IMG/VR virus record: IMGVR_UViG_3300020201_000017
Origin: an uncultured virus (IMG/VR IMGVR_UViG_3300020201_000017)
Lineage: Duplodnaviria > Heunggongvirae > Uroviricota > Caudoviricetes
DNA length: 20,000 bases
Direction: 5' to 3' (one strand)
The notes under the pieces are model-generated. The model was not told the origin of the DNA. It searched no databases and worked only from the letters and a program-made list of their open reading frames with translations. Each line of letters begins with the position of its first letter. Positions within the stretch are counted from its first letter, which is position 1. The translations under genes were made by a program, and so were the position numbers. Positions 1-16,951 of the stretch are shown piece after piece.

Positions 1-2
1 TA

Positions 3-446
3 GAAAAAGAATTAGACCATTCTGCCAGTATTGGTAGACCAGGAATAGGTTTAGCCGCTCCTCAAATAGGAATAGCTAAGAATATTGCAATAGTTAGAAT
101 TAATAAAGAATTAAGCTTCAATTTAATTAACGCTAGAATTAATAATGTTTATGATCAAAAGATATTTGAAAATGAAGGCTGTTTATCATTTCCAGGTGAA
201 TTTGTAAAAACGCTAAGATATGATGAAATTCATGTAACTAATCATTATGAGAATAAACGAGAATCATTTATATTAACAGGATTGCCAGCAGTTGTTTGGC
301 AGCACGAGCACAATCATTTACATGAAATTTTATTATCTGATATTGCTATAAAAGATAAAATCATAAAAAAACAAAAAATGCGACCAAATGATCTGTGTTC
401 ATGCGGTTCTGGTAAAAAATATAAAAAATGTTGCGTAAAGGCTTAA
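3..446 (+). CDS. def: Peptide deformylase with C-terminal SEC-C motif (5' end lies before the window; absent from ORF track)
   Basis: Manual translation from nt 3: EKELDHSASIGRPGIGLAAPQIG...ENEGCLSFPG...VWQHEHNHLHEIL...KMRPNDLCSCGSGKKYKKCCVKA*. All three PDF motifs (GxGxAAxQ, EGCLS, HExxH) plus the SEC-C consensus CxCGSGKKYKKCC. Confidence 0.95.
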   Translation, partial: EKELDHSASIGRPGIGLAAPQIGIAKNIAIVRINKELSFNLINARINNVYDQKIFENEGCLSFPGEFVKTLRYDEIHVTNHYENKRESFILTGLPAVVWQHEHNHLHEILLSDIAIKDKIIKKQKMRPNDLCSCGSGKKYKKCCVKA

Positions 447-447
447 T

Positions 448-696
448 ATGACTGAAGAAAGTGATAAAATTGTTGAATTAGAAAAAATTATAAAAGATCT
501 TGAAAAAGATCTTTTAAGAAGTAATGGCGCTCAAGTAGAATGTTTTGTTAGAATTAATTCTTTAGAGAAACTTTTGCTTCAAAAAGGAATTTTTTCTGAA
601 AAAGAATATGAAGATTCTGTAAAAAAGAATATTGAAACGTTTGGAGCTGCGATGGAAGCTGCTCTCAAAGCAAGAATTGAAAATAATATAAATTAA
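448..696 (+). CDS. Hypothetical helical/coiled-coil protein
   Basis: 82-aa ORF starting 1 nt after the def stop; TAATG overlap with the next gene. Confidence 0.75.
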   Translation: MTEESDKIVELEKIIKDLEKDLLRSNGAQVECFVRINSLEKLLLQKGIFSEKEYEDSVKKNIETFGAAMEAALKARIENNIN

Positions 697-959
697 TGAT
701 TAACGTTAAATTATTTTATGCAGAGTGGAGCAGACCAAGTGTTGCTGTTAAAAATATTATAAACAAAATGCAAAATGAATTTTCATTAATTAATTTTGAA
801 TATCTTGAGTACGATAATGATAAACAAGCTTTTTTTAAGTTAAATGATATTGTTAATCTTCCAACAGTAGTGATATATAAAGATAGCATTGAAGTAAAAC
901 GAATCGAAGGCTCGTTTTTAACCAGCCCTCTAAGGAAATTTCTAATTAAATTAAAATAA
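696..959 (+). CDS. Thioredoxin-fold protein lacking catalytic cysteines (WSRPS)
   Basis: FYAEWSRPS aligns to F-x-A-x-W-C-x-P-C; LPTVVIYKD...VKRIEG matches the cis-Pro strand and C-terminal part of thioredoxins. Confidence 0.85.
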   Translation: MINVKLFYAEWSRPSVAVKNIINKMQNEFSLINFEYLEYDNDKQAFFKLNDIVNLPTVVIYKDSIEVKRIEGSFLTSPLRKFLIKLK

Positions 960-967
960 AGGAAAAA

Positions 968-1333
968 ATGGCTACAAAAAAAGCAAGTAAAGTTTCAAAA
1001 TCAGCAAAATTAACTCCTAAAACAGTTGTGCAAAATGTTAAAGATAATATTGCTGATCTTGTTGTTGATTTAACACCAAAAGTTAAAGAAGAAAAGAATT
1101 TGCAATCTTCTTCTGAACACGCTCTTTGGTCTGAATTAAAAGATAGACAAATTCAAGCATTTGGTTTACCAAAACAGAAAGTTTGCGATCATGTTAAATT
1201 TAAATCAGGTGCTGGAAGTAAAATTATTGTTACTTTGAAAGCATCAGCTATTCTTCCATTATTAGAAGAGACATTTTTTAAAGAATATTTATTTGAACAG
1301 AGTGAAAAATACGTAGTAATTACCAAGATTTAA
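968..1333 (+). CDS. Hypothetical protein with Lys/Ser/Ala-rich N-terminus
   Basis: 121-aa ORF, AAGGA Shine-Dalgarno upstream. Confidence 0.75.
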   Translation: MATKKASKVSKSAKLTPKTVVQNVKDNIADLVVDLTPKVKEEKNLQSSSEHALWSELKDRQIQAFGLPKQKVCDHVKFKSGAGSKIIVTLKASAILPLLEETFFKEYLFEQSEKYVVITKI

Positions 1334-1337
1334 AAAT

Positions 1338-1793
1338 GTGGATATACCTAAAATACAATTATTATTGGGTTGCTTTGGCTACCAGGAAAACGGATTCGTA
1401 TCCTGCAGAGGTTGTGAAAATTGTATTTTATTGATTGATTCTCAAACTGATCAATATAAGGTAATGATGGATTATCTTGATTCCTGCCGTCTTTTTGATA
1501 AAGCTTTATTTGAATATAATTCTATTAATGGTTTTATTAGAAATATGCAAGCCAAGTTTGATCAGGCAAGTAGAGATAGGACTCTTTGGAATGAAAAAGA
1601 GTATAGGCTATTTCAAAAGTTCATTGCTGAGCATAGATCTTGTGGTTTATATGTAAAATTACTACCTATTGATGATAATAAAATAGAATTAAAGAGTATT
1701 GAGGAAAAAAGTATTACTGTTAAAACGCCAAATAATTTAAATAAAAAAATAATTACTCAAAAAATTAAATTAAATTTGCGATGTAGAAGGTAA
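1338..1793 (+). CDS. Hypothetical protein, possible Zn-binding (CRGCENC ... HRSC)
   Basis: 151-aa ORF tightly packed between neighbours; GTG start. Confidence 0.7.
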   Translation: MDIPKIQLLLGCFGYQENGFVSCRGCENCILLIDSQTDQYKVMMDYLDSCRLFDKALFEYNSINGFIRNMQAKFDQASRDRTLWNEKEYRLFQKFIAEHRSCGLYVKLLPIDDNKIELKSIEEKSITVKTPNNLNKKIITQKIKLNLRCRR

Positions 1794-1805
1794 GGGTATT
1801 TTTGT

Positions 1806-2009
1806 ATGGTGAACGAGCGAAAAGATTATAATAATTTAGTAGAAGCTAGTATTTCTGTGCTAGAATCTAAAAAATTGTCTTATAAAAAATCGTTCTGTAT
1901 TGCTTGCGGATTAGAGTTTCGTGCCATATTAATACCTATTTGTTCTGATTGTTTAGATAGTGAATGTGATATTTATGTAGACAGGATAGACGGTGATGAA
2001 ACAAAGTGA
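1806..2009 (+). CDS. Small putative zinc-finger protein
   Basis: CIAC-x10-CSDC cysteine pairs. Confidence 0.6.
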   Translation: MVNERKDYNNLVEASISVLESKKLSYKKSFCIACGLEFRAILIPICSDCLDSECDIYVDRIDGDETK

Positions 2010-2247
2010 TTATAACTCCTGTTTGTTATATTTGTTATACTTATCAAAATCTAATATGATTTTTTTAGAACTTAAAATTGATGAATACCCTTCTGTACAA
2101 GAAGTTCCATCAGGATTATATGAAGAAATTCTATTAGAAACAGATAAATATTATAAAATTCATAATAAACTATCAAAATACTTTGCTTCAGAGTCAAATG
2201 TTGATAAACATTTAAAAATGTTTGAAAAACAAGTTGCAAAAGCTTAA
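1993..2247 (+). CDS. Hypothetical protein
   Basis: 84-aa ORF overlapping the previous gene's end; start may be ATG 1996. Confidence 0.65.
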   Translation: MMKQSDYNSCLLYLLYLSKSNMIFLELKIDEYPSVQEVPSGLYEEILLETDKYYKIHNKLSKYFASESNVDKHLKMFEKQVAKA

Positions 2248-2270
2248 TATCAATAATTTACCATATAATA

Positions 2271-2471
2271 ATGGATAGAAATCATCGAAAAACTTTATTA
2301 AAAGCTTTAATAAAAAAAATGAAAGAGTTAAATCTTACGGAAACTGATGATATTGGTGATATATTACCTAATAACAAGATACAATATTTAAACCCTCAGG
2401 ATAGACAAAGCCCAAATTATGGCTATATGACTATTTCTGAAATGGCTGCTGGAACTCCAAATATATTCTAA
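2271..2471 (+). CDS. Hypothetical protein
   Basis: 66-aa ORF filling the gap between neighbours on the coding strand. Confidence 0.65.
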   Translation: MDRNHRKTLLKALIKKMKELNLTETDDIGDILPNNKIQYLNPQDRQSPNYGYMTISEMAAGTPNIF

Positions 2472-2481
2472 GGTGAATCTC

Positions 2482-2868
2482 ATGAGAACAATTACAGAAA
2501 ATCAATTTAATCGTTTAGTAATTCAGGCTGAAGAAGCTGAAAAACAAAAACTAACAAAGATTGCAACAAATCTTACAAAGCAGGTTGAAAAAGTTTCGGT
2601 TCGTCCTGATGATGCGTCATATATATATGCTCAATCCTCTTTGTCAGAGGATGTAGAAGTATCATTGTGGGATGCAGCCATCCGTATATCAGATTTCCAC
2701 AATGCCTCTGTAGACGCCGTAGAGATGCAAGGGCTGATTGAGACCTTTGCTAAGGCGCTGATTAAAGAAATTGAAATTAAAGCTAATTGCGAACATGGTG
2801 TGGGCGCATATGAACCATCAGTGCCAGGAGAAGACAGAGAGACGGTGGCTATTGAAATTGAGGAATAA
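2482..2868 (+). CDS. Hypothetical acidic protein
   Basis: ORF track start is GTG 2473; ATG 2482 is preceded by an SD-like AAGGTG. Ala/Glu-rich. Confidence 0.75.
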   Translation: MRTITENQFNRLVIQAEEAEKQKLTKIATNLTKQVEKVSVRPDDASYIYAQSSLSEDVEVSLWDAAIRISDFHNASVDAVEMQGLIETFAKALIKEIEIKANCEHGVGAYEPSVPGEDRETVAIEIEE

Positions 2869-2870
2869 TT

Positions 2871-3341
2871 ATGAGCGAAAAAATTGCTTTTAGTGATGAA
2901 AACGCTGATGTTATTGATGAAAAAAACAAAGGTATCAAAATAGATCGTAAAAAATCTATGTTTCAATCAACAAAAGATCAAGAGCATACCGCAGATCAGT
3001 TCTCTGAAGAGATAACTGATTATCAAAACAAAGAAAAAATGCTAGCAAATCGCACACTTGATGCATCAATTAGATTCAGAGATGCTTTGAATGACAAGAC
3101 ATTATCTGAAAACAAAACTCCTCAAGATAAAGATATTGAAAAATCAATCATGAAAGAATTATGTCAAGTTGCTTTAGAAATGAATAATGATGAAAATAAA
3201 CCTGAAGGTGCTGGGTCCGTTGGACTTCACAGTTTAATTTTAAATATGTTCTTACTACAAAGAAACACCATAAATTCTTTGAATTATAAAATATTTAAAT
3301 TATCAGAAGAAATTAAAAGTTTAAAAAATAATGGCAAATAA
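2871..3341 (+). CDS. Hypothetical helical protein
   Basis: 156-aa ORF, GAGGA SD upstream, coiled-coil-like C-terminus. Confidence 0.8.
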   Translation: MSEKIAFSDENADVIDEKNKGIKIDRKKSMFQSTKDQEHTADQFSEEITDYQNKEKMLANRTLDASIRFRDALNDKTLSENKTPQDKDIEKSIMKELCQVALEMNNDENKPEGAGSVGLHSLILNMFLLQRNTINSLNYKIFKLSEEIKSLKNNGK

Positions 3342-3561
3342 AGATATAGATAATACTTATATTGTCGAGTTGTTGGCGCAAGAAATACAGACATATAGTG
3401 AATACGTAAGATTATGTGTGAGATACAAAATTCAACCAAACCCGATAGTAGAAGCGTCATCATTAGCCACTCAAAATATCTTGAAGAAGATAATGGATGG
3501 CAGACCAATATCGGATCAAATGCTGAACGAGAATGGTCAAAAGAATATAATTTTAAAATAA
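3331..3561 (+). CDS. Hypothetical protein overlapping the primase zinc-finger ORF
   Basis: 76-aa ORF whose start overlaps the upstream gene end; amphipathic-helix-like sequence (YIVELLAQEIQTYSEYVRLC). Confidence 0.6.
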   Translation: MANKDIDNTYIVELLAQEIQTYSEYVRLCVRYKIQPNPIVEASSLATQNILKKIMDGRPISDQMLNENGQKNIILK

Positions 3562-4109
3562 TTAAATTAGCTAACAAACAGAGTTCATTATTACAATCTT
3601 TAAGTAATAAAAATATAAAATTTGAAATAAATTACAGCACATCTGGTTGGACCCATAAAAGCTGTTGTCCGTTTCCAGATCATCAAGATAAGACTCCATC
3701 TTTTCATTATAATTCATCTGATGATATATTTAAATGCCACGGGTGTGGCAGAGTTGGTGGGAATGTAGAATTTTTATCTTTTTTAACAGGAAAAAAGAAA
3801 ACAGAAGTAGCTAAAAGCATATTAGATAAAGAAAATATAACAAGTGATATTTATGACTCTATTTATGAAGATATAGATGATAGGTTTGATGTATTAATGA
3901 AGCAGGCTTCGGATTGTGCTCGTTCTTTTTTAAGAAAAAATAATGAGAAAAAACACTTATCTATAATTGAAAAGTTATTTTGGAATATAGACCTTTACAT
4001 AGAAAAATATTTTGGTACGGACATGTACAGTTCTGATGACTTACAGGTTAGAATTAATTATATTAAAGAAAGATTAGAAGAATATGAGCAACAGTCTAAT
4101 AGTAGGTGA
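3414..4109 (+). CDS. DnaG-type CHC2 zinc-finger protein without TOPRIM catalytic domain
   Basis: CPFPDHQDKTPSF...FKCHGCGRVGGNVEFL matches the zf-CHC2 primase zinc-binding domain; the remaining ~100 aa look helical with no EG..D / DxD TOPRIM motifs. True start uncertain. Confidence 0.85.
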   Translation: MCEIQNSTKPDSRSVIISHSKYLEEDNGWQTNIGSNAEREWSKEYNFKIIKLANKQSSLLQSLSNKNIKFEINYSTSGWTHKSCCPFPDHQDKTPSFHYNSSDDIFKCHGCGRVGGNVEFLSFLTGKKKTEVAKSILDKENITSDIYDSIYEDIDDRFDVLMKQASDCARSFLRKNNEKKHLSIIEKLFWNIDLYIEKYFGTDMYSSDDLQVRINYIKERLEEYEQQSNSR

Positions 4110-5298
4110 TTTGCATATTGGAAAAGGTTTATCAATTGGCAAACCTGGTGTTGGCAATAATTATAATAGCCGCATTATAGATCAACTAAATCTTTTAAAT
4201 TGGATTACTGATGTTGTTCATGAAAAAAACGTTGATCGCATCATTTTAACTGGTGATATTTTTGAAGATTTAAAACCACCATATTATCAATCCAAACTAT
4301 TTATTGATTGGTTAAAAAGAATTGAAAGTGACGGTATTGATATTCATATCATAATAGGTAATCATGATATTACAAGATCAGGTGCTACAATTATCTCTCC
4401 GGTTTTAGATTTAATAAATTCATGTGATTTTCAAAATGTTTATATTTATTATAATATAGAAACTATTGAAACAGAACTGGTTGATTTTACTTTTATTCCA
4501 TTTCGCGATAGAAGGTCTTTACAATGCGAAACCCACGGTGAGGCATTATCTATAATTAAAAACTGTTTAGAATTTGAAGTATCAGCAATTTCTAAAATGA
4601 AAAAGAAAGTGATTGTTGGTCATTTAGCCCTTGAAGGGGCTATTTATGTTGGAGATGAATGCGATGATTCATTAAACGAATTAATTTGTCCATTAAGTAT
4701 GTTTACAGATTACGATTATACTTGGATGGGTCATGTTCACAGGCCTCAAGTTAAATCAGAAACGCCATTTATAGCTCATACTGGCAGTTTAGATCTTTCT
4801 GATTTTGGAGAGACAGATCATACCAAAAATTTAATTTTAATTAATCCAAAATCAGATGATTTTTTTGAAAACATACCAGTACCTAGCAGACCATTAAGAC
4901 GTTTAAAAATAAATGTTGCAAATAAAGATATTAATTCCACAGAATATGTAATGGAAATAATTTCGGGTCAACACGAAGGATCATCGTATAAAAACGCTAT
5001 TGTTAAAATTGAAATAACATTATGTGGAGAAGAAATCGAAAATATTAACTTAGATAAAGTTACTGAATTTATATATTCTTTGGGAGCTTATTATATTTCA
5101 TCTATAACACAATCAAGGCAAATATCAGTTATAGCTGTGGATCAAAAAGACTCTGTAGATAACAGTATTGACCCAAAATCAGCTGTAAAACTGTATTCTG
5201 AATATATTTCCAATGATGATTTAGAAAAATCACAATTTATATTGCTTTGTAATTCAATAATTGACGAATGTAAGGAGAAATCTCGTGAAACCAATTAA
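4084..5298 (+). CDS. sbcD: Mre11/SbcD-family (T4 gp47-like) DNA repair nuclease
   Basis: Metallophosphoesterase motifs GDLH, GDIF, GNHD, GH, GHVH; adjacent to a Rad50-like ATPase. Confidence 0.93.
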   Translation: MSNSLIVGDLHIGKGLSIGKPGVGNNYNSRIIDQLNLLNWITDVVHEKNVDRIILTGDIFEDLKPPYYQSKLFIDWLKRIESDGIDIHIIIGNHDITRSGATIISPVLDLINSCDFQNVYIYYNIETIETELVDFTFIPFRDRRSLQCETHGEALSIIKNCLEFEVSAISKMKKKVIVGHLALEGAIYVGDECDDSLNELICPLSMFTDYDYTWMGHVHRPQVKSETPFIAHTGSLDLSDFGETDHTKNLILINPKSDDFFENIPVPSRPLRRLKINVANKDINSTEYVMEIISGQHEGSSYKNAIVKIEITLCGEEIENINLDKVTEFIYSLGAYYISSITQSRQISVIAVDQKDSVDNSIDPKSAVKLYSEYISNDDLEKSQFILLCNSIIDECKEKSRETN

Positions 5299-7444
5299 TT
5301 TATGTATTGAGAAATTCATGGGTCACTCTCAAAGTGATATTGATTTCACTAATTTTAACAGTTGTTTGATTGTTGGTGTTAATAAAAATAATAATCGTAT
5401 ATCTAATGGCGTTGGTAAGAGTACAATATTTCATGCTATTGAATATGTGTTGTATAACGAATATCCGTGTAAAAAAGCTGAGAAAATAATTAAAGATGGT
5501 GAAAGCAAATGTAAAGTTGAGTTTATTTTTGAAATTAATGAACAGATTTATAAAGCACGCAGAGAAAGAACTAAGTCAGTATCCAATTTATATTTGGAGA
5601 GACAGTTAACTGATGGATCATGGGAAGAAATATCTGGTAAAAGTAACTCTGAAACGGAGCTTGAGTTACTTAAAATTATTAAACTAAATTATAAAGCTTT
5701 TAAAAATTGCGTTTTGTTTTCTCAAGGCGATCTTGACGGGCTAGCTTCCACATCATCAGATAAAAGAAAAGACTTATTAAAAGAGCCGTTACAATTATCT
5801 AATTATAATGCTTATAGTAAAGCTGCAAAAAAGAAATTAGATACGGAAAAGCTTAATTTTGAAAAAAATCAAGTTTTAGTTGAATCTTTAGGTAATCCAA
5901 GCGAAGATATTGATTTATTTACTATTAAAGTTGATGAAATTAAAAATAGTAATGTTTTTAATAAAAAAGAAAAAAATTCTTTGCAGGTTTTGCTAGAATC
6001 ACAAGTCCAATCATTATCAGATCTAGATAATACACTAAAATCTGCGGCATCAAATACGGTAAATCAAATACACGATTTAGATGTAGATTTAAAAGTATTA
6101 AATAGTGATTTAAAAAAATCACTCGGTAATGACGAAACAAATTCTAAAAAGCTTGAATTTTTATTATTAAACCTAGTAAATAAACAGAGCACACTTGATG
6201 AAAAAAAGACATTATTAACACAAATACAAGTTGAAACAAAAAGAAATATTTTAGATGTAAAAAAAGAACTTGAATCAGTTTCTAGTAAAGAAAGTGATGG
6301 TAAGAATTTTCTTTTAAATTTAAAAAATCAAAAAAATAAATTAGAAAAAGAATTACCTGAGAAAAGTAAGTGTGATATATGTCTACAAAACATTGGTGAA
6401 GATCATCGTCACAATTATAGCGTATATAAAGAATCAAAAATAACAGAAATTAATTCAAATTATGAGTTGTATTCGATAAAACTAGATAAATGCATAGCGT
6501 GTAGAGAAGCTTTATCCAAAGAAATTTATGAAATTGAGTTTTATAATGATAAAATAAAATCGTTAATTTCGGATATAGCAAATTATAAAAGTAATATTTT
6601 ATTAGAATCAGAGTCAGTCAGCACTTATAAAGATATAGTTAAACAAAATAAAATAACTATAGAAGATCTTAAAAATAAAATATATTTAGCTGAACAACGT
6701 AAAGATCATTTACTATCTATATCTGTCGAAAACAAAAATGAAGAAATTAATGATAAAATATTAAAATTAAAATTAAATATTAATATTTCTCGGTCTAGTA
6801 TTAATAAATTGATAGAAACAATTTCATCGAGCGATACATTTCTTGGTGTTTATGCAGAAAAGCTTCATAAAAGACAAGACGACTTGCTTAAGTTAAACGT
6901 TTTAATTGCAGATGCTGTGTTAATTCGAAAACAAATAAATTTAAATGAAAAAGTTCTGAAAGCTTTTGGTCCAAACGGCATCCCTACGATGATTATTAAT
7001 AATATATTAGATGATTTACAAATCGAAGGAAACAGTATACTATCAGAAATGAGGCCATCATTACAGTTTCAGTTTATTTCTAATAATGAAACTGATTCAT
7101 TAGATATAATTTTCAATGTACATGGTAAAAATAGAGATTATGAATTACTTTCAGGTGGTCAGAAATTATATTTTGCTTTAGCATTTAAACTTGGGCTATC
7201 TAAGGTTATTCAAAAAAGAGTTGGAATAAAAATAAACTTTATAGGTTTAGATGAAGTAGATCAATCTCTGGATCTTGACGGCATTGATGCTTTTTCTGAT
7301 ATAATTAAAAAGTTGCAAAATCAATTTAAAATATTAATTATTACTCATAATGAACATATTAAAAGTAAATTTAATCATTTTATTATTGTTGAAGGTGATG
7401 ATGCAAACGGTTCTTGTGCAAAATATTCGGCAAACTTGGAGTAA
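5285..7444 (+). CDS. sbcC: Rad50/SbcC-family (T4 gp46-like) SMC ATPase
   Basis: Walker A NGVGKST, Q-loop FSQG, long coiled coil with zinc hook CDIC, signature LSGGQ, Walker B/D-loop LDEVDQSLD, H-loop ITH. GTG 5285 follows AAGGAG and is preferred to TTG 5261. Confidence 0.95.
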   Translation: MKPINLCIEKFMGHSQSDIDFTNFNSCLIVGVNKNNNRISNGVGKSTIFHAIEYVLYNEYPCKKAEKIIKDGESKCKVEFIFEINEQIYKARRERTKSVSNLYLERQLTDGSWEEISGKSNSETELELLKIIKLNYKAFKNCVLFSQGDLDGLASTSSDKRKDLLKEPLQLSNYNAYSKAAKKKLDTEKLNFEKNQVLVESLGNPSEDIDLFTIKVDEIKNSNVFNKKEKNSLQVLLESQVQSLSDLDNTLKSAASNTVNQIHDLDVDLKVLNSDLKKSLGNDETNSKKLEFLLLNLVNKQSTLDEKKTLLTQIQVETKRNILDVKKELESVSSKESDGKNFLLNLKNQKNKLEKELPEKSKCDICLQNIGEDHRHNYSVYKESKITEINSNYELYSIKLDKCIACREALSKEIYEIEFYNDKIKSLISDIANYKSNILLESESVSTYKDIVKQNKITIEDLKNKIYLAEQRKDHLLSISVENKNEEINDKILKLKLNINISRSSINKLIETISSSDTFLGVYAEKLHKRQDDLLKLNVLIADAVLIRKQINLNEKVLKAFGPNGIPTMIINNILDDLQIEGNSILSEMRPSLQFQFISNNETDSLDIIFNVHGKNRDYELLSGGQKLYFALAFKLGLSKVIQKRVGIKINFIGLDEVDQSLDLDGIDAFSDIIKKLQNQFKILIITHNEHIKSKFNHFIIVEGDDANGSCAKYSANLE

Positions 7445-7447
7445 AAG

Positions 7448-8353
7448 ATGATTATTTGTTTATCTGGAAGAATAAAAAGTGGTAAGTCAACAATAGCAAA
7501 CGATTTAGTCACTAACAAAGGTTTTAAAAAAATTTCCATTGCTTACTTTTTAAAAGATAGTATTTCAAAACTATATAATATAGACATTATCAACTGTTTT
7601 GACCAGAATTTAAAAAATAAAAAAAGAAAAGACCTTCGTTGGGACTCTGAAATTGCAAAAAAATATGCTTTAGACCATGGTTTAGATTATAATAAACTAT
7701 ATTTTGGTTCAATTGATGATAAGATTTTTGAAGACATCAGAGATGCTTTAACATATATTGGAACAAATATTTTGCGAAGATATGATGAAAACTTTCACGT
7801 CAAAAGGGCATTACTAGAAGTAGTTGATGATTTTGAAAATTATGTTTGTGATGATGTTAGATTCCAGAATGAAAAACAAGCTTTTGAAAAGGCTGGTGCT
7901 AAATGTTTTTTCATTTTACGACCACATAATTTTGAATATTTAAACCATATATCGGAAACATCTCTAACATGTAAAGATTTTAGCAATTTTATAATTAATA
8001 ATAGTTCTTTTACAGAATTAATCATAACAGCTAATGATGCTATATTTAATAATAAAAAAATTAGTATTGAAGTTGATCATACAGTGTTTATTTATAAAAA
8101 TATTAACGATGCTTTCTGGGCCGGTTTTATCCAAGGCAATAATTCATTACATTTTGATCAAAAAACTCAAAAATATAAATTAGTAATTTCTAGCGAAAAA
8201 AATAAAATTATTAATGATTTTTGTAATTTTTTAAAGATAGGTTTGTTCCAATATGTAACCCTAGGTACACCTGATGAAAAACCAACTCAGTATGTTGTTG
8301 AAACTGATAATCCTTTCATTTTGGAAAATATAAAGCTTTGGGATATTCATTAA
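7448..8353 (+). CDS. Deoxynucleoside monophosphate kinase (T4 gp1-like) with C-terminal degenerate LAGLIDADG-like extension
   Basis: P-loop SGRIKSGKST, RDALTYIGTNILR, DDVRFQNE, HISET are phage dNMP kinase motifs; tail contains AFWAGFIQGNNS. Confidence 0.85.
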   Translation: MIICLSGRIKSGKSTIANDLVTNKGFKKISIAYFLKDSISKLYNIDIINCFDQNLKNKKRKDLRWDSEIAKKYALDHGLDYNKLYFGSIDDKIFEDIRDALTYIGTNILRRYDENFHVKRALLEVVDDFENYVCDDVRFQNEKQAFEKAGAKCFFILRPHNFEYLNHISETSLTCKDFSNFIINNSSFTELIITANDAIFNNKKISIEVDHTVFIYKNINDAFWAGFIQGNNSLHFDQKTQKYKLVISSEKNKIINDFCNFLKIGLFQYVTLGTPDEKPTQYVVETDNPFILENIKLWDIH

Positions 8354-8380
8354 GCACTGAATAATACAGTATTCTTGTGT

Positions 8381-8689
8381 ATGGCTTTAAAATTAAATGA
8401 AGAATTAGCAAATCAATATATTGAACTTTTAGAAAAAAAAGGTGAGGTCGGGCTTTACAAACAAGCCATAGCTGTAGGTGTTCGTGCATCTGTTGAAATA
8501 AAAAATCCAGAAAACGATATATTAAACTTATCAGAAGCTTTTTTATTAAAATACAGAGTGACTGCTAACTTTAATTATTTTATAATTAGCAAATGTTTGC
8601 GCCGGGCAGCTCATGTTTTATACAGAGAATTTTTAAAAAAGAATAATCGCGCCGATATTAATAAGCGGTTTTTAAATATGGTGAAATAA
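8381..8689 (+). CDS. Hypothetical basic helical protein
   Basis: ORF track gives TTG 8375; in-frame ATG 8381 is more plausible; abuts the next gene. Confidence 0.7.
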   Translation: MALKLNEELANQYIELLEKKGEVGLYKQAIAVGVRASVEIKNPENDILNLSEAFLLKYRVTANFNYFIISKCLRRAAHVLYREFLKKNNRADINKRFLNMVK

Positions 8690-8690
8690 A

Positions 8691-9674
8691 ATGGCAGTAA
8701 TAACCATAACCATAGCTGATAGCCCAATTCAAATAATTGAAGGAATACCTCAAACTGTTGCTGTTTCAGCTAATATTGCATCAACAATATTTTATACCCT
8801 AGATGGATCTGTACCAACTATTAATTCTGATATTATTATCGGCCCAATTACTATGCCTACAGATACTGGCTCTGTAATTTTGCAAGTATTTGCCTCTAAC
8901 GGTACAGACTCGTCTGCCATAATTGAAAAAACTTATACAAACAATGTTTTTTCCTCTATGCGTAGACCAAGAGATACTATCCAAGGTACAGCTCAGCCAT
9001 TTCCTGGTCCAAATTTATTCCCATTTGGAAGCAACTCTACAGACCCAAATGTAATTTATGGAAATATTGGCGGAGAAGTTGTTAGTACACCAGGTAATAC
9101 CAATCATCCTGCTGGATGGGATGGTAAAGGGAATATTGTAGGATACACAGATCTTCCAGCAAAATCTTACCAAAATATTTATTCTGAAACGGATAGTGAA
9201 GGACGATATGGTAGATTTTTAGGAAATTTGCCTGCTAAAGTTCAAGTTCGTGTTCCACCGCCACCAACAGATGAATCACAAGAAAACTCTCTACTGTTTA
9301 ATTCAAGGTCTTTAGTTATCTTTCAGGATGGTACAAAACCACCAGTTGACCCGACGGTTGCACGTCAAAATCGTCAATTTTTCTCTCTAGAAAACTCTGA
9401 AGTGGTAAGAGATGGTTCAAATTATTACAATACCGGTCTGGAAGTTGGAGGCCCTACAGGCTCACTAACTCGGCCGCAATATAATGATAGAGATGGTACA
9501 GTAACTTATTATTATTTTGATAGTCAAAATCTTCGCTGGATTATTTCTAAAGAAAATGTTGGTGTTAGGGGTAATCCTACAGCCAATCTATCTCATATTC
9601 TAAGGTCTCCACGAGATACATCTGTTGGTAAGGTTTTCAAATGGATTCCATTTAAACGACAGTTTTTAGGATAA
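8691..9674 (+). CDS. Probable virion/structural protein with N-terminal FN3-associated (chitobiase/beta-hexosaminidase C-terminal-like) domain
   Basis: STIFYTLDGSVPTINS is the I-Y-Y-T-x-D-G-S-x-P motif of that Ig-like domain; protein is Gly/Pro/Ser/Thr-rich and Lys-poor, unlike its neighbours. Confidence 0.65.
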   Translation: MAVITITIADSPIQIIEGIPQTVAVSANIASTIFYTLDGSVPTINSDIIIGPITMPTDTGSVILQVFASNGTDSSAIIEKTYTNNVFSSMRRPRDTIQGTAQPFPGPNLFPFGSNSTDPNVIYGNIGGEVVSTPGNTNHPAGWDGKGNIVGYTDLPAKSYQNIYSETDSEGRYGRFLGNLPAKVQVRVPPPPTDESQENSLLFNSRSLVIFQDGTKPPVDPTVARQNRQFFSLENSEVVRDGSNYYNTGLEVGGPTGSLTRPQYNDRDGTVTYYYFDSQNLRWIISKENVGVRGNPTANLSHILRSPRDTSVGKVFKWIPFKRQFLG

Positions 9675-9710
9675 TTGTCGAGTGTTAATAAAATGACTAT
9701 ACATAATAGT

Positions 9711-10559
9711 ATGGTTATTCATAAAGCAATTTTATTAAATAAAAAACCTCAAGTGGCTGAAGGAGAATCTTGGCCATATTTTAATCTTAGTGTTAGTAAA
9801 GCTAAGACATTTAAAGATTGTAAAGCTAAATATAATTTTTCATATATCGAAAAACTTCCTAAAAAAGATTGGGAACATTTATCTTTTGGTAAATTTGTAC
9901 ATGAAATATTAGAAAGGTTCTACAAATATAGAATTGCTGGTAACGAAGACCCAGATCACATTTTAGTCTCTTTATCTTGTAAAGAATCTTTAGTAGAGTG
10001 GAGAGGTAAGCTCTCAGATGAATCTTTAGATTTATCTAAAGATATGATTAATCAATTTATTAAAAAATTAAAATATGATAAAGAAAATCATTTAAATCCA
10101 AATGTTATTGCTGTTGAAAAAGATTTTAATATAAGTATAGATGATAAAGTTTTATTATTAGGATTTATCGACAGAGTTCAAATTGATCGAGATGGCATAA
10201 TGTGTGTGGCAGATTATAAGACAAGTAAGAGTATGGCTTATCTTAAAAAAGATTTTTTACAATTGCAAACATATGCTATGGCTTTGTTTTTAGAAAATCC
10301 AGATGTTGAAATTATTCGAGGTTCATATATTATGTTACGTCATAAATTTGTTGAAATTACAAAAGAATTTAGAAGAAATGATGTTATGTCGTTAATAGAT
10401 ACTTTTTATGATTACTACGAACAAATTGGTAATGAAAAATTATTTAGACCAAAAGTTACACCTCTTTGTGGCTGGTGTGATTATTTAGAAAATTGTAAAG
10501 ATGGTAAGTCTTTTATGAAAATACCAGAAACGAGTCACGGTGAAACTAGTTGGTTGTAA
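9711..10559 (+). CDS. PD-(D/E)XK RecB/AddB-family nuclease with 4-Cys Fe-S staple (Cas4-like)
   Basis: LSVSKAKTFKDC, FGKFVHEILE, EKDF, GFIDRV, DYKTSK, QLQTYA and C-terminal CGWCDYLENC. Start uncertain (9675 TTG, 9693 or 9711 ATG). Confidence 0.88.
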   Translation: MVIHKAILLNKKPQVAEGESWPYFNLSVSKAKTFKDCKAKYNFSYIEKLPKKDWEHLSFGKFVHEILERFYKYRIAGNEDPDHILVSLSCKESLVEWRGKLSDESLDLSKDMINQFIKKLKYDKENHLNPNVIAVEKDFNISIDDKVLLLGFIDRVQIDRDGIMCVADYKTSKSMAYLKKDFLQLQTYAMALFLENPDVEIIRGSYIMLRHKFVEITKEFRRNDVMSLIDTFYDYYEQIGNEKLFRPKVTPLCGWCDYLENCKDGKSFMKIPETSHGETSWL

Positions 10560-10702
10560 TGGATATCTGAACGTTTCGATAAACATTTATATCATAATTA
10601 AGAAGTTATAATAAAATTATACTCAATGTTTCGTGGTTTAATATTAAGCAAATAGATAAATTAGCTAAAAATAAAAATATTATAGAAGAAGGAAAATAAA
10701 AT

Positions 10703-11923
10703 ATGAATGTTACTACACAAGAAATTGAATTTTGCAAAGTTAAAGCTAGCTATACGGCCGACAAGGAATTTGTTAAAGAAAAAAAAGATGAGGTTGTTTC
10801 TTTTTTTCAAAAACAAAAAATTCCTGGTTTTAGAAAAAACAAAGCAAGTAAATTAGTAATTTTAAATAAATATAAGCAACAAATTGAAGATAATTTGAAA
10901 CAATTATTACTCAATCAAGCTTATGAGGATGTAATTTTTGAAACAAAAATGCGTTCAATTGGTCAACCACAAATGTTAAGCATTAATCTTAAAGGTAACA
11001 GTTTTACCTGTGATCTTCTTTTTCTAAAGAAACCTGATTTTGAATTAAAAGATTTTAATGGTATGAAGGTTGTAAAGCCTAGCTCTACCAAAAACGAAAC
11101 TGAGATTGCCGAGGCTCAACTGCAAGAGTTGCGGGTTTCAGCTGGATCTTTTAAAGCGTATGATGAAAATGATTTCGTTCAATTAAAAGATAAAGTTACT
11201 TTATCACTAGATGTTTTTGTAGATGATAAAAAATCTGAAGAACTCTCGGAAGAAGGTAAACTCTATGTTGTTGGGTCCGGATTATTTAAAGAGTTTGATG
11301 AAAATATTGTAGGTATGACTTCAGGTGAAGACCGTGAGTTTGATGTTTTGCTAGATAATAAAACAAAAGCTCATGTTAAAACAACTCTGCATACTGGTTT
11401 ACGTCAAACAGCTCATCCTTTAAATGATGAACTTGCTAAGGCCTTTGGTAAAGAAACTCTTGTTGAACTGCGTGAGGCTGTTACTGGTATGGCGACAAAT
11501 CAAGTGAAAGCGGAAGTTGATGCTAAAATTAATGAGCAAATTAAATTACAATTAATTCAGATGCACGACATTGTTGTCCCAACTTGGCTTCAACAAATGG
11601 AATCGCAACAGATTGCAGCTTTTGATAAAATTAATCTTGAGTCCTGTACACCAGAAGTTTTGGAACATTATATGGATCGGGCAAAAATACAAGTTCAATT
11701 TGCTTTAATTTTAGATTCAATTCAACAAACTATACCTGAAGCCATGTTAACTGACGCTGAAGCAATGGAAGTTGTTAAAAATAAATTAGTTACGCAAGGT
11801 TATGATTATAATAATGTAGTTGGAGATAAAAATAATGCAAATCAATTATATGGTATGATGATTTCAGCGAAAAACGAATTTACACTTGGTTACATTATTG
11901 ACAAAGCGGAGATTATAGAGTAA
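10703..11923 (+). CDS. tig: Trigger factor (ribosome-associated chaperone), divergent
   Basis: N-domain signature IPGFRK; FKBP-like middle (DKVTL...VGSGLFKEFDENIVGMTSGEDREFDV); LNDELAK linker; C-domain (HDIVVP); 406 aa; GAAGGA SD. Confidence 0.92.
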   Translation: MNVTTQEIEFCKVKASYTADKEFVKEKKDEVVSFFQKQKIPGFRKNKASKLVILNKYKQQIEDNLKQLLLNQAYEDVIFETKMRSIGQPQMLSINLKGNSFTCDLLFLKKPDFELKDFNGMKVVKPSSTKNETEIAEAQLQELRVSAGSFKAYDENDFVQLKDKVTLSLDVFVDDKKSEELSEEGKLYVVGSGLFKEFDENIVGMTSGEDREFDVLLDNKTKAHVKTTLHTGLRQTAHPLNDELAKAFGKETLVELREAVTGMATNQVKAEVDAKINEQIKLQLIQMHDIVVPTWLQQMESQQIAAFDKINLESCTPEVLEHYMDRAKIQVQFALILDSIQQTIPEAMLTDAEAMEVVKNKLVTQGYDYNNVVGDKNNANQLYGMMISAKNEFTLGYIIDKAEIIE

Positions 11924-11925
11924 TT

Positions 11926-12162
11926 ATGGAAACAGATTTTAACCTAATATATGAACAAGTAAGCGTAACAATAGATTATGATAATGGTAAATTAGGCTTG
12001 AACGCTTATCATAGTGGTCCTGGATGGTATTTTTGGGAAACAGAATGCCCAAGTGAAGGTTGTAACGGCCCTTATGATATCAAAGAAGACATGATGGAAG
12101 CGATTACGTCAGTTAATGGTATAGTTGAATTTGATTATACAATAGTTAGAAAGGTAAAGTAA
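11926..12162 (+). CDS. Hypothetical protein (GWYFW...GPY motif)
   Basis: 78-aa ORF, separated by only 1-2 nt from each neighbour. Confidence 0.7.
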   Translation: METDFNLIYEQVSVTIDYDNGKLGLNAYHSGPGWYFWETECPSEGCNGPYDIKEDMMEAITSVNGIVEFDYTIVRKVK

Positions 12163-12163
12163 T

Positions 12164-12454
12164 ATGGAAATGTTGGGATTTAATATTTTAATCGAAGAAA
12201 TTAAAGAAGAGTTAGTTGAGGAGAAAACAGCCAGCGGTTTAATTGTTCCTGGAACAGCTAAAAAAGAAAGCGAATTTTTGACAGCTAAAGTCGTACGTAT
12301 AGGTCCGGGTGATTATGTTTTTAATGTTTTTGTTAAACCAACAGTTGCTGTTGGTAACACTATTGTGGTAGATAAAAAGTTCGTACGCGACTTCAAACAT
12401 GACGGAAAAGAATTTAAATTAGTTCTTCTTCGTGATGTGCTAATGACATTATGA
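12164..12454 (+). CDS. groES: Co-chaperonin GroES (Cpn10)
   Basis: Mobile loop EEKTASGLIVPGTAK, KVVRIGPG, VAVGNTIV, DGKEFKLV..RDVL; 96 aa. Confidence 0.92.
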   Translation: MEMLGFNILIEEIKEELVEEKTASGLIVPGTAKKESEFLTAKVVRIGPGDYVFNVFVKPTVAVGNTIVVDKKFVRDFKHDGKEFKLVLLRDVLMTL

Positions 12455-12552
12455 AAAACACACAAGTATTAACGGATGCTGCCTATTATGTTATATTAGT
12501 CGCAATGTGTGGTAGCTTCCTTTATGCAATTCAATTTATATATAATTTATAA
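12451..12552 (+). CDS. Small single-pass membrane protein (33 aa; below ORF-track cutoff)
   Basis: MKNTQVLTDAAYYVILVAMCGSFLYAIQFIYNL*; ATGA overlap with the groES stop; fills the intergenic gap. Confidence 0.6.
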   Translation: MKNTQVLTDAAYYVILVAMCGSFLYAIQFIYNL

Positions 12553-12568
12553 CCAGGAGTAAGAAAAA

Positions 12569-12883
12569 ATGACAAGAAAAGAACGGCCAGTAAAAAAAGA
12601 TGATGATAACGATAGTGGTTTTCCAAAGAAATGGGCAAAATCTCTTCCTGATGGATTTATGGAAGAAGTTGCTGGATTTACGGAAGATGATATTAAAAAA
12701 ACAATGCTTGCATGTAATAGCAATGTATATAATATAGAAGCTGAAGTAGATGCTGATGAAAAACTTAACGCTGCAAAAGAAGTTCTTAAAGAACTCAGCG
12801 CTGGATACAAAGAAGCTCTCAAAACTCAAAATGCAAAAATTAAATATTGCTCTTTTGAATTAAAACATCGCGGTAAAGAATAA
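12569..12883 (+). CDS. Hypothetical coiled-coil protein
   Basis: 104-aa ORF with AGGAG SD; charged helical pattern. Confidence 0.8.
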   Translation: MTRKERPVKKDDDNDSGFPKKWAKSLPDGFMEEVAGFTEDDIKKTMLACNSNVYNIEAEVDADEKLNAAKEVLKELSAGYKEALKTQNAKIKYCSFELKHRGKE

Positions 12884-12898
12884 CTATAAAGGATAACC

Positions 12899-13192: not shown

Positions 13193-13330
13193 TCTGCTTA
13201 AAAAGTAATGATATTAAATTATTAAAATTTTAAATATTGATTGCGTTTATTATTTATATTTATTATGTTCCTTAAATAATGAGGATAAAAATTATTATAT
13301 TATCTAATAATTTTAAAATTATAAAATCTA

Positions 13331-13359
13331 TTGCTAATAGCTGCAAGTACCAGTATAAT
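13331..13359 (+). promoter_or_regulatory. Putative sigma70-type promoter for dnaE
   Basis: TTGCTA (13331-13336), 17-bp spacer, TATAAT (13354-13359), with a very AT-rich UP-like tract upstream. Confidence 0.55.
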
Positions 13360-13366
13360 GCAAAAG

Positions 13367-16300
13367 ATGGCATACACTAACATGCAAGAATATATTCCTT
13401 ACGTTTCTCTACATAATAATACAACTTTTTCTCTTATGGACTCTTTAATAGAACCTAAAGAGTTATTTCAGCGCGCCAAAGAATTAAATCAGCCAGCAGT
13501 GGCTGTTACCGATCATGGCACCCTGTCTGGTATTTATGAATCATATAAAGCTTCAAAAGAAACCGGTGTTAAATTAATCGTTGGAGTAAACTTTTACTTT
13601 GTTAATGATGTAAATAATAAGGATGAAAGATTACGTCATCTTATTCTTTTAGCTAAGAACAAAATCGGCTATCAGCATTTGTTAAAATTAAGCAAACTTG
13701 GATTCGATAATAGACTAGTTTCTTCCAAAAAAGTTTATCCTAGAATTGACTGGGCGCTATTGAAGGATAATTCTTCAGACCTAATCTGCACTACGGCTTG
13801 TGGTGCCGGAATTATTTCCCAACTACTTAACAAACGAGATTTTGAAGAAGCAGAAAAACAATCGCTGCAACTAAAAGAAATATTTGGTGATAATTTGTTT
13901 TTTGAAGTTCAACCAAATGCTTTAAATAGAAATGTAAATCTTTATACAGATTATGTTGACCAAATGTTTACCAATCGTCAATTAAAAAAACTTGGCGAAA
14001 AACTTGGTATTAAATTAATTGTAGCTACTGATGCCCATTATGTTACTCCAGATCAGTATGAAAGTCATGACGCTATGCTTGCAATGGGTAGTGGTCAGCC
14101 AATTTTTTCAGGTAACCGTCTAAAATATAATGTAAATGACTTTTATATCAAGTCAGGAAATGAAGTTAAGGCTTTCTTCTCTCGTGTCTGGGGTGAGGAG
14201 TTCGCTCAGTCGTTAATTAATAATACCTTAGAAATTGCTGATATGTGCGAAGATCCTTCTTGGACCAATCCGGTTGTTGCATCTGGTAAAAACAATCAAT
14301 TACCAAGATTCCCAATCGAAGATGAACCAGATTATGAATACTTTTTAGCTTGGAAATATGATAACCCAGTTGAAAATATTTCTGATGATGCACTGTTTTA
14401 TAGATACAGAAGTTTTAAATGTCTTGATGCCAAAATCAAAAAAGGTGATATCCCAGAAGAAGATCGCCAAGAATGTATTAAACAAATGGAAGAAGAGTTC
14501 GAAGTTTTTGAATTTCGTGGCTTTTCTAGCTATATGTTAATCGTAGCTGATTTTTTAAACTGGGGAAGAAGCCAAAATATTTCAATTGGTTATGGTCGAG
14601 GATCAGTCGGAGGATCTCTTACAGCTTATGTAAATGATATTCATGCAGCTTATCCCAAAAAGTTCGGCCTTATTTTTGCTAGGTTTTTAAACAAATTTAA
14701 AGATGCTTACCCGGATATAGACTCGGATATCTCTCCAAAAGGGCGAGGAGCTATTCATAATTATCTGGCTCGCAAATATGGTGCAGATAGAATAGCTCAT
14801 GTAAGCAATGTTCTTACAATGAAACCAAAAGTATATGCAAAATCTATTACTCGTACATTTGATCTTGCTGGTGATAGGAAAGAATCTGTAGTTCTTGGAC
14901 AGAAATTAGCAGATCTTATTTCCGCTGATACTAAAAAAGTTACCGATGCTTTTGAAAGAAGCCCATTATTAAATGAATATGCTGAAAAATATAAGCCGTT
15001 AAAAAATCACGCAAAAAATCTTCAAAATAAAAAAATGGCTTGGGCTACGCATGCTGCAGGTATTGTTTTATCAATTGATCCTCTTCAAGATTATTTCCCA
15101 TTAAGAATTGATAAAGAGGGTCAAATTGCTGTCGAATTTACAAAAGATGATGCCGAAGCAAACTCTCTGGTAAAAATTGATACTCTTGGCCTGAGTACAC
15201 TGGACATCATCACCGAAACAGAAAGAATTATTAAAGAGTGTGGTAAAGAAGTCCCGATTATCAATCTTAATGAATATGACGAAGCAACTTATAATCTTAT
15301 TTCTGATGGTAGAAATAATTGTGTCTTTCAACTAGGTACTTCTGGTGGAACAATTGATCTTTGCCGAAGAGTTAAACCAAAAAGCATTTATGATCTCGCT
15401 TTAATCAACGCACTTGCAAGACCATCAGCTAAAGATATTCGTAATGATTTTATTGCTACTCGTAATGGTGATGTTGCAGTAAATATTCCAAAACATTTTA
15501 TGGATAGGGCTTTTAGTAGTACGTATGGTTTCGGTTTGTTTGAGGAAAGCTTAATGTTTTTGGCTGAAGATGCGGCTGGATGGAATTTACATCAAGCTGA
15601 CAACCTTCGTAAGTTAACTAAGATGAAAGGCAAAGATCAGAAAAAAGTTGATGAGTGGCGTCAAGATTTTATTGGTGGTATGAAGAAAAAACATGACTAT
15701 TCCCAAGAAGATGGCGAAATTTTCTGGGAAAAGCACATTGCATCATTCGGCGGTTATGGTTTCAATGCTAGCCATGCGATTATGTATTCAATGGTAGGAT
15801 ATCATACAGCTTATCTTAAAGCACATTTCCCATTAGAGTTTTTGGTTGCTAATCTTAAATCTGAAGTTGCTTCAAATGCAAAAATAGCTGCCGATAATAT
15901 TATGAAAATTAAAGAAGAGATTCGTTTTTTAAATATTAAAATTATACCTCCAGATATTAATATTTCAGAAATGGATTACAAAGTAATTGATAACCATACA
16001 TTGATGACAGGACTATCAGCATTAAAATTTGTTTCCGACGATGCAATTCAAAACATACTTGAAACTCGTCCATATACATCTTTCGAAGATTTTCTTGCAA
16101 AAACTAATTCATCAAAAGTCAGAAGCACTGCTATTCAAGCTTTAGCTGCCTCGGGCTGTTTTGATTCGATTGCGCACACACTCACGCGCAAGCAGATGTA
16201 CTTATACGCCTCAGATTTTAAAAAGAAATTTCAAGCTTATGCTAAGAGTAAAGCAAAGAATCCTGCAAAATATCCTACATTTAATTATCCTTGGCCAGAA

Positions 16301-16951
16301 GAAGCTGAGTGGAGTATTCCTGAAATATTTGCTTTGGAAAAACGTTATCTTGGCGAGGGTCTTACGGGAACCAAGTTTGATGTATTTGGTAAATTTTTTA
16401 AGCCAGGCGATATTAATTTCAAAAAACTGGATAAAATATTTCCTCCACCACCAGATGATATGGATGAATCTGATTTAAAAAAATATTCGCAGCGTGTAGA
16501 TAATCTTAAGGGTGAGATTAAGCAGATATTTGAATTCAACGTTAAGAAAGAAGATTCAAAATTATTTGGACAAACGATGGCAAAAATGCTGATTGAAGAT
16601 CCTTTTGGCAATCAAATGCGCGTTACTTTATTTCCTGATGGCCTAGATGGTGTCAAAAAGAAATGTTTAGAAACCAGCAATAAACGCCAGCCGTTAGCGG
16701 TCGGGATAGCTGTGAAGCTTATTGGAAATCTTCAGTATTATGAAGGGACGATGGGGTGTATTATTACTGATATTCGAGGTTTGGCCATGGCTCCGCAAGA
16801 ACCGAGTGAATTAAAATCTAGGAAGATAGTTATGAAAAAAGAAAAAGTTATTAAGCAAATTAATCTTGAAGACTTTGATCGTAATGATATTCTTGATGAT
16901 TTAGAAGAAGATTTAGCTTACGGTGAAAATGGTGATATTATAGATGAGTGA
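13367..16951 (+). CDS. dnaE: DNA polymerase III alpha subunit (DnaE, family C)
   Basis: PHP domain (TDHG, HLILLAKN, TDAHY), GRGSVGGSL, catalytic PDIDSD and KIDTLGL, YGFNASHA, HhH region, C-terminal OB fold. No intein-sized insertion. Start probably ATG 13367 or 13382, not TTG 13331. Confidence 0.97.
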   Translation: MAYTNMQEYIPYVSLHNNTTFSLMDSLIEPKELFQRAKELNQPAVAVTDHGTLSGIYESYKASKETGVKLIVGVNFYFVNDVNNKDERLRHLILLAKNKIGYQHLLKLSKLGFDNRLVSSKKVYPRIDWALLKDNSSDLICTTACGAGIISQLLNKRDFEEAEKQSLQLKEIFGDNLFFEVQPNALNRNVNLYTDYVDQMFTNRQLKKLGEKLGIKLIVATDAHYVTPDQYESHDAMLAMGSGQPIFSGNRLKYNVNDFYIKSGNEVKAFFSRVWGEEFAQSLINNTLEIADMCEDPSWTNPVVASGKNNQLPRFPIEDEPDYEYFLAWKYDNPVENISDDALFYRYRSFKCLDAKIKKGDIPEEDRQECIKQMEEEFEVFEFRGFSSYMLIVADFLNWGRSQNISIGYGRGSVGGSLTAYVNDIHAAYPKKFGLIFARFLNKFKDAYPDIDSDISPKGRGAIHNYLARKYGADRIAHVSNVLTMKPKVYAKSITRTFDLAGDRKESVVLGQKLADLISADTKKVTDAFERSPLLNEYAEKYKPLKNHAKNLQNKKMAWATHAAGIVLSIDPLQDYFPLRIDKEGQIAVEFTKDDAEANSLVKIDTLGLSTLDIITETERIIKECGKEVPIINLNEYDEATYNLISDGRNNCVFQLGTSGGTIDLCRRVKPKSIYDLALINALARPSAKDIRNDFIATRNGDVAVNIPKHFMDRAFSSTYGFGLFEESLMFLAEDAAGWNLHQADNLRKLTKMKGKDQKKVDEWRQDFIGGMKKKHDYSQEDGEIFWEKHIASFGGYGFNASHAIMYSMVGYHTAYLKAHFPLEFLVANLKSEVASNAKIAADNIMKIKEEIRFLNIKIIPPDINISEMDYKVIDNHTLMTGLSALKFVSDDAIQNILETRPYTSFEDFLAKTNSSKVRSTAIQALAASGCFDSIAHTLTRKQMYLYASDFKKKFQAYAKSKAKNPAKYPTFNYPWPEEAEWSIPEIFALEKRYLGEGLTGTKFDVFGKFFKPGDINFKKLDKIFPPPPDDMDESDLKKYSQRVDNLKGEIKQIFEFNVKKEDSKLFGQTMAKMLIEDPFGNQMRVTLFPDGLDGVKKKCLETSNKRQPLAVGIAVKLIGNLQYYEGTMGCIITDIRGLAMAPQEPSELKSRKIVMKKEKVIKQINLEDFDRNDILDDLEEDLAYGENGDIIDE

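Follow-up and report, generated by a model that had tools for sequence, protein, structure and literature searches.

Trigger factor and a SEC-C-tailed peptide deformylase in the replication block of giant tailed phages: candidate factors for the ribosomal tunnel exit

In Escherichia coli, peptide deformylase (PDF) and then methionine aminopeptidase (MAP) act close to the ribosomal tunnel exit, where trigger factor (TF) binds uL23 through its N-terminal domain; its peptidyl-prolyl isomerase (PPIase) activity is described as dispensable for chaperoning (PMC8185961). PDF is reported to dock at uL22 through a C-terminal helix (PMC12690207; bioRxiv 10.1101/312850), MAP is thought to use a basic loop on the ribosome (bioRxiv 10.1101/312850), and the metal-binding tail of SecA binds 70S ribosomes (PMC6620043). 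In phages larger than 200 kb, bS21, PDF, release factors and tRNAs have been described (PMC7162821, Al-Shayeb et al. 2020; PMC6375957, Mizuno et al. 2019), bS21 being also treated in PMC9723584; neither TF nor an aminopeptidase is named in the main texts of the first two reports or in 10 supplementary files of PMC7162821, file 7 lying outside the search. In this work, we analyze a 20,000-nucleotide stretch, hereafter the window, of an uncultured virus of the Caudoviricetes (IMG/VR IMGVR_UViG_3300020201_000017), which encodes a PDF with a SEC-C tail and a TF, together with its relatives in sequence collections.

Other described systems resemble single parts of this set. The deformylases of cyanophage S-SSM7 and vibriophage VP16, as presented in PMC3660681, carry the same active-site motifs and no C-terminal helix; they are simply truncated, whereas the clade of the window gains SEC-C in 26 of 31 members. 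Jumbo phages encode HSP10/GroES and DnaJ, co-chaperones lacking their ATPase partner and proposed to recruit host HSP60 and HSP70 (Iyer et al. 2021, PMC7824862); the same is found here, but with DnaJ as a core gene and a patchy GroES. Hodor megaplasmids also feature a TF on a mobile element, proposed as a chaperone of giant proteins (PMC12934698); it is plasmid-borne and lies beside sortase and secYEG, with no deformylase mentioned in that description. While tRNAs, ribosomal proteins, deformylases and co-chaperones are already known in phages, our literature search, which covered open-licence papers, retrieved no report of a phage TF or of a PDF-MAP-TF set; annotation tables elsewhere may list tig. 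What the window adds is a GroES gene that is an insertion, a cysteine-free thioredoxin, an eroded PPIase site and the persistence of tig in records picked by their capsid gene.

We read deformylase, MAP and TF, along with DnaJ and bS21, as inherited genes that one group of giant phages keeps under selection, GroES being present in some members only. The explanation that we favour, and hold to be reasonably probable, is that phage-encoded processing factors for the tunnel exit, along with phage co-chaperones, supplement the ribosomes and chaperones of the host. If expressed, the phage TF would dock at uL23 of host ribosomes via its GFR loop and hold emerging chains, while the basic SEC-C tail, in place of the uL22-binding helix, would tether the deformylase near the exit; after deformylation, the aminopeptidase would remove the methionine. 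DnaJ and, where present, GroES would then pass chains to host DnaK and GroEL, neither of which was found in the phage records searched, and the outcome would be a greater capacity to mature phage proteins made in a large burst. The same three folds make up the E. coli tunnel-exit set, and in the phage PDF and MAP keep their catalytic residues and TF its ribosome-binding loop; the phage set differs in that the PDF helix gives way to SEC-C, the basic loop of MAP is missing and TF has lost Y221. It also differs from the bacterial context in being phage-borne, and features neither a tig-clpP-clpX nor a def-fmt arrangement. With PDF, MAP and TF as vertically kept core genes, the hold of phages over translation would reach beyond initiation to the tunnel exit.

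Homologues of tig number 233 and are mostly 30-46% identical. A scan of IMG/VR with a single tig protein gave no match, while an alignment-based scan succeeded and produced 99 hits, 80 of which were kept; adding 3 such loci out of 80 from metagenomes gives 83 phage-type loci. Whole records were searched in 35 of the 37 that, out of the 80, are at least 115 kb long, and 10 of these are at least 90% complete (near-complete in the following). Since the 35 records had been chosen via tig, additional records were chosen via the capsid gene. In a first set, all 13 records reaching at least 62 kb upstream of the capsid gene turned out to be known tig carriers, one further record reaching 48.7 kb; in a second set, tig was found in 8 of 11 new long records. 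Of the three misses, two (G197 and G206) break off within the block before tig is reached; the third, G204, extends only about 28 kb beyond the capsid gene.

Gene order around tig is fixed in the 83 phage-type loci: the nuclease is found in 83, an Fn3-like protein in 82, DnaE in 82, the open reading frame (ORF) starting at 12569 in 77 and SbcC in 73, the lower counts having to be read with the fact that many loci end early. The window itself is devoid of virion genes. Its viral origin is borne out through its syntenic relatives, which carry capsid, terminase and tail genes, and because of these it is, on synteny, part of a conserved core replication block of giant tailed phages (Caudoviricetes). 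Records of the relatives reach 481 kb, and one of them features direct terminal repeats; the HK97-fold capsid family NF042927 is found in 28 of the 35 records and in all 10 near-complete ones.

A cellular or megaplasmid contig has, in our judgement, practically no probability, notwithstanding that megaplasmids with a trigger factor exist (PMC12934698) and that 6 of the 35 related records (G001, G004, G014, G016, G023 and G035) are classed as 'provirus' in IMG/VR. Besides the virion genes of the relatives, GroEL was found in none of 35 records and Hsp70 in none of 16, with controls positive in 14 and 12 of 14, respectively, and no member of the phage TF family was found in 151 + 5 bacterial genomes. 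A GTDB scan recovered no relative among 100 pattern matches, being limited by its pattern, which missed ordinary bacterial TFs too.

The tig gene (10703..11923, + strand) encodes a full-length, three-domain TF of a phage-specific branch. Trigger_N is matched with 69.4 bits and TIGR00115 with 141.7 bits over residues 11-343, against a curated cut-off of 180.2 that is exceeded by the orthologues of two long relatives, G002 and G003 (187.2 and 187.6). The protein is 18-22% identical to solved TFs; its structure model (pLDDT 89) resembles E. coli TF from end to end and is matched by Foldseek to 1W26 with an E of 9.3e-23 over 429 columns, with a TM score of 0.84 for the N-terminal domain, and to FKBP structures; BFVD gave no match at E 0.001. 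The ribosome-binding loop (10826..10843, + strand) reads G42-F-R-K-N-K47, aligned to G43-F-R-K-G-K48 of E. coli. Among distinct viral rows G43 is kept in 76 of 76, F44 in 74, R45 in 76 and K48 in 68, a count biased by the fact that one of three search patterns contained the motif; in a motif-blind profile search, 92 of 116 full-length hits show the strict motif. The GFR loop is the best-conserved part of the family. In two trigger factors a long insert rich in lysine and arginine directly follows GFR, and a 710-residue protein carries TF at residues 289-699 (all three being among P0145, P0149 and P0159).

The middle domain (11150..11407, + strand) is predicted by the model to have the FKBP fold; in the window it keeps F198, has the Y221 loop deleted and lacks F233 as well. 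These three residues (E. coli numbering) we take to line the PPIase pocket. In the viral rows, F198 is kept in 70 of 76 and F233 in 59 of 76, and Y221 is replaced or deleted (G in 38, a gap in 19), while Y221 is present in 50 of 70 cell rows. PPIase activity is probably weak or lost in the phage TF, as far as alignment can tell, and the family would supply a naturally occurring set of trigger factors with an eroded PPIase site.

Sampled viral TFs form one branch, as the initial annotation had wished to see established, with an SH-aLRT of 100 in both trees built (39 viral with 47 cell rows, and 17 viral with 60 cell rows, chosen from 77 and 70). Also included were 22 genomes from the G036 phylum, plus another 3; the trees, quick LG+G4 ones with long branches and limited cell sampling, point to no donor lineage. 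The family is deep: clustering at 50% identity gives well over 100 groups. The TF profile scores 422-592 bits in the 83 phage-type loci, as opposed to 85-199 in 75 cell-type loci; among 151 genomes from a single bacterial phylum it scores no higher than 194.5. ClpP lies inside none of the 83 phage-type tig loci, compared with 51 of 77 cell-type ones. GenBank phages yield 16 TF matches of 22-29% identity, none covering 80%, and several of these are on records resembling host DNA.

Median dN/dS is 0.14 for tig (20 pairs), equal to that of the neighbouring nuclease (0.14), 0.19 for def (6 pairs) and 0.10 for map (2 pairs), all from non-independent pairs with dS of 0.05-1.5. By this measure, the phage TF is under purifying selection.

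The deformylase gene enters the window at its edge (3..446, + strand; PF01327 and PF02810), the first 28 of its 175 residues lying beyond it. Pep_deformylase is matched with 79.5 bits and SEC-C with 27.5 bits; for the whole 175-residue protein (P0349), the model reaches a pLDDT of 93.5 and matches PDF structures in Foldseek with E of about 5e-12. All three PDF motifs, GxGxAAxQ, EGCLS and HExxH, are found in 31 of 31 PDFs of the clade, the third reading HEHNH in the window, with D changed to N. TIGR00079 scores 76-91 bits, below its cut-off of 103.95. The tail, resembling the SecA metal-binding domain (387..434, + strand; residues 129-144 of the fragment), takes, along with a linker, the place of the E. 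coli C-terminal helix, the docking element expected of a type 1B deformylase: no helix of at least 4 residues follows residue 142 in the model, so that the docking helix is absent. Net charge is +8 over the last 30 residues in the window and +4 to +10 in the 26 of 31 clade PDFs that have the tail, which is closely similar to that of E. coli SecA. The proposed co-occurrence of this deformylase with tig was recovered in 34 of the 35 records, def lying 9-16 kb upstream of tig. The PDF-SEC-C fusion is covered to 80% by no record in the 146 hits from GenBank phages. Natural PDF pairs with and without SEC-C might serve as a test of SEC-C as a general ribosome tether.

Further members of the set were identified in the relatives. 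An M24 peptidase occurs in 19 of the 35 records, including all 10 near-complete ones, 129-171 kb downstream of tig; both proteins tested exceed the TIGR00500 cut-off, and 18 of 19 keep H79, D97, D108, H171, H178, E204 and E235, so that the family is, by sequence, a type I methionine aminopeptidase. Of the capsid-picked records, 4 of 5 in one set and 3 of 5 in another carry MAP; the remaining three stop no more than 82 kb beyond the capsid gene, and in four records checked MAP lies at 86-104 kb. DnaJ is present in 35 of 35 records (10 of 10 near-complete), 9-16 kb downstream of tig, and bS21 in 34 of 35 (10 of 10), 13-31 kb upstream. MAP, DnaJ and bS21 lie beyond the window, hence their omission from the gene set first proposed. 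The bS21 matches fall in open frames of 90-140 residues, as compared to a 55-position model (e.g. L212:474-824), which indicates extensions.

Several points weigh against a role of these proteins at host ribosomes. In addition to the bias of the 76-row loop count, the strict loop motif is missing in 24 of the 116 motif-blind hits; most of these show a variant of it, about ten carrying N, S or W in place of F44, and a single one lacks the loop; 5 of the 31 clade PDFs are entirely tail-less. MAP residues 205-230 include 7 K/R in E. coli and only 0-4 (median 1) in 19 viral rows, a comparison made with E. coli and no other bacteria, and the MAP of G032 (L267) is degenerate, having lost six of seven key residues. 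The genes do not form a single operon, def lying 9-16 kb and map 129-171 kb from tig. Moreover, several of the 35 records are near-duplicates, and map, dnaJ and bS21 are known from relatives only, not from the genome of the window itself. The lineage of G031 and G032, home of the degenerate MAP, also has a tail-less deformylase.

Some of these points would be accounted for if the proteins worked off the ribosome. TF would then act unattached, as a holdase or as an assembly chaperone of virion or replication proteins of very large size, and PDF and MAP once the chain has been released. A MAP without basic loop and the tail-less PDFs fit this explanation, and so do the virion-region proteins of 1000-2200 residues encoded by relatives, the proposal that the megaplasmid TF serves giant proteins (PMC12934698) and the reported activity of known phage PDFs without docking helix (PMC3660681). 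It is, however, unexpected in this case that the GFR loop should be the most conserved part of such a diverged TF, and that most PDFs should keep a basic tail resembling the ribosome-binding tail of SecA; we consider work off the ribosome unlikely, though worth keeping in mind.

The company of bS21 and of ClpP, which is common to G002 and G003, suggests a further possibility, in which phage factors would oust host TF and PDF, so that phage chains are served first and host chains, left formylated or unfolded, go to ClpP, combining shut-off with help. Erosion of the PPIase site with retention of the docking loop would suit a competitor; a cyanophage PDF is reported to prefer D1 peptides (PMC3660681), and retained formyl-methionine is described as a degron (PMC8185961). 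Intact catalytic sites, however, suit plain supplementation, and there is no evident way in which a tunnel-exit factor could tell phage from host chains; such a takeover seems to us quite improbable. Much the same holds for a broader rebuilding of the exit surface, a rather improbable scheme in which TF (its docking loop retained and its PPIase eroded), SEC-C deformylase, aminopeptidase and the extended bS21 would displace host factors and produce phage-dedicated ribosomes, phage chains being matured first and host chains degraded; were it true, one could regard SEC-C as a portable tether to ribosomes. Addition of phage factors to those of the host remains our preferred explanation.

The def, thioredoxin-fold, tig and groES genes, proposed in the initial annotation as a nascent-chain processing kit, were all recovered where reported, on the + strand, by Pfam, PHROGs and NCBIfam searches, and the usual bacterial neighbours of def, tig and groES (fmt, clpP/clpX and groEL) are indeed absent from the window. 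The kit is real as far as its genes are concerned, but not as a compact layout: the four genes are scattered over 12.5 kb among about 20 ORFs. The reported interleaving with replication-type genes was also found, as primase Zn finger, SbcD, SbcC, dNMP kinase and PD-(D/E)XK nuclease genes, followed by DnaE.

GroES, in particular, does not behave as a fixed member. In the window, a 78-residue ORF (11926-12162) and a divergent groES (12164-12454) form a two-gene, lineage-specific insertion (11926..12454, + strand), neither gene of which occurs in the 83 loci; groES adjoins tig in 0 of 83, whether searched for with tblastn or with a profile built from GroES proteins of the clade itself. The protein (96 residues, canonical layout, mobile loop SGLIVPG) matches Cpn10 with 44.9 bits, over the Pfam cut-off of 21.1 and below every NCBIfam cut-off; with its GLIV loop, we take it to be unlike T4 gp31. 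No near relative was found, identity to 21 other viral GroES being 19-34%, and 8 sequences gave 0 usable pairs for dN/dS. GroES occurs in 12 of the 35 records and 4 of the 10 near-complete ones, about 84-170 kb from tig, and in 3 of 5 further records. At the junction between tig and ORF 12569, 8 of 77 other relatives hold unrelated inserts, such as HNH-like nucleases; from this distribution, the GroES of the window is a one-off insertion at an insertion hotspot.

An assembly artefact is unlikely at the groES junction, because two contigs reproduce the arrangement: one from run X3 covers 1-13400 unbroken with 14 different letters, and may itself be the source of the window DNA, and one from run X4 covers 10780-13400 (tig, groES and ORF 12569) with 0 differences. 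The labels of runs that contain the window sequence read microbial mat and freshwater, and no RNA run is among those listed; at least half of its words are present in 8 of 13, and the runs may come from one campaign. No terminator-like site is found in the 240 bases that separate groES from tig, so that the two may be co-transcribed in the window lineage. This, and the order def, trx, tig kept across the group, could be taken to indicate a selected and co-regulated four-gene module; yet the nuclease, SbcCD and DnaE genes are equally conserved in the block. Such a module is very improbable, and as regards groES it is largely refuted.

Two genes after def lies the thioredoxin-fold protein (696..959, + strand; 24.1 bits, cut-off 23.5), for which a role in nascent-chain handling had been put forward; we found no evidence supporting such a role. 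It contains no cysteine at all, W-S-R-P-S being found where W-C-x-x-C is expected. The fold is present in all 30 def loci, and WCxxC in 8 of 43 distinct full-length orthologues. The motif is kept where seen in the window's own branch (L005, L008 and others), and is missing in the window and in the other large branch; because the window's own branch otherwise keeps it, this pattern suggests at least two losses.

The long ORFs of the window are all on the + strand, with a GC content of 23-36%. Family matches and synteny define a conserved backbone between def and tig (3414..10559, + strand), made up of primase Zn finger, SbcD, SbcC, dNMP kinase, Fn3-like and PD-(D/E)XK nuclease genes. The same block continues with a DnaE-type DNA polymerase III alpha (13331..16951, + strand), identified by family matches. 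Directly 3' of tig in most relatives is a helical protein of 104 residues (12569..12883, + strand), to which family search assigned no known family (best atlas score 0.88); the gap to tig is at most 36 bases in 69 of 77 relatives. With it on one side and the Fn3-like protein (8691-9674) on the other, tig is flanked as tightly as by any gene. Sigma-70-like sites give no signal (93, compared to 80.6 +/- 8.2 in shuffles), and no shared motif upstream of tig is evident by eye.

The primase seems to be split: the window has a lone CHC2 zinc-finger ORF (3414-4109), and in relatives the Toprim gene stands by itself, after dnaJ (L213:17726-18529). Just 3' of dnaE (16944-17712), two overlapping ORFs both match HNH/endonuclease VII families and possibly represent a split homing endonuclease; similar genes are found at many sites in relatives (23 of 83 loci).

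G002 (459 kb) and G003 (452 kb, with the direct terminal repeats) have 161 ORFs in common, 135 of which were scanned. They include terminase, baseplate J and sheath initiator genes, those for bS21, DnaJ, ClpP and the M24 peptidase, and further a TubZ-like tubulin, DksA/TraR, Thg1, RNA ligases, a CCA-adding enzyme and a cold-shock protein. Among GenBank phages the best capsid match is Bacillus phage G (Donellivirus), 52% over 84%; this phage is absent from the 16 TF and 31 MAP matches in GenBank phages, and its terminase is of another type than that of the relatives, whose best matches (25%) are to small Bacillus phages.

Polyangiaceae, to which the best genome matches of G003 release factor 2 belong (48%), were considered as a host lead and set aside, Lachnospira being nearly equal (300 vs 279 bits) and the TF tree showing no donor. 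The G003 gene (L246:7194-8279) encodes a full-length release factor 2 over the TIGR00020 cut-off, and G002 only a 130-residue RF domain. A simple scan found no CRISPR array in these two genomes, and their Shine-Dalgarno signal is weak. ARAGORN predicts tRNAs with TTA and CTA anticodons (G002 451588-451662, G003 80119-80195), which are possible suppressors; despite them, coding density under table 11 is 0.95 in G002 and 0.91 in G003.

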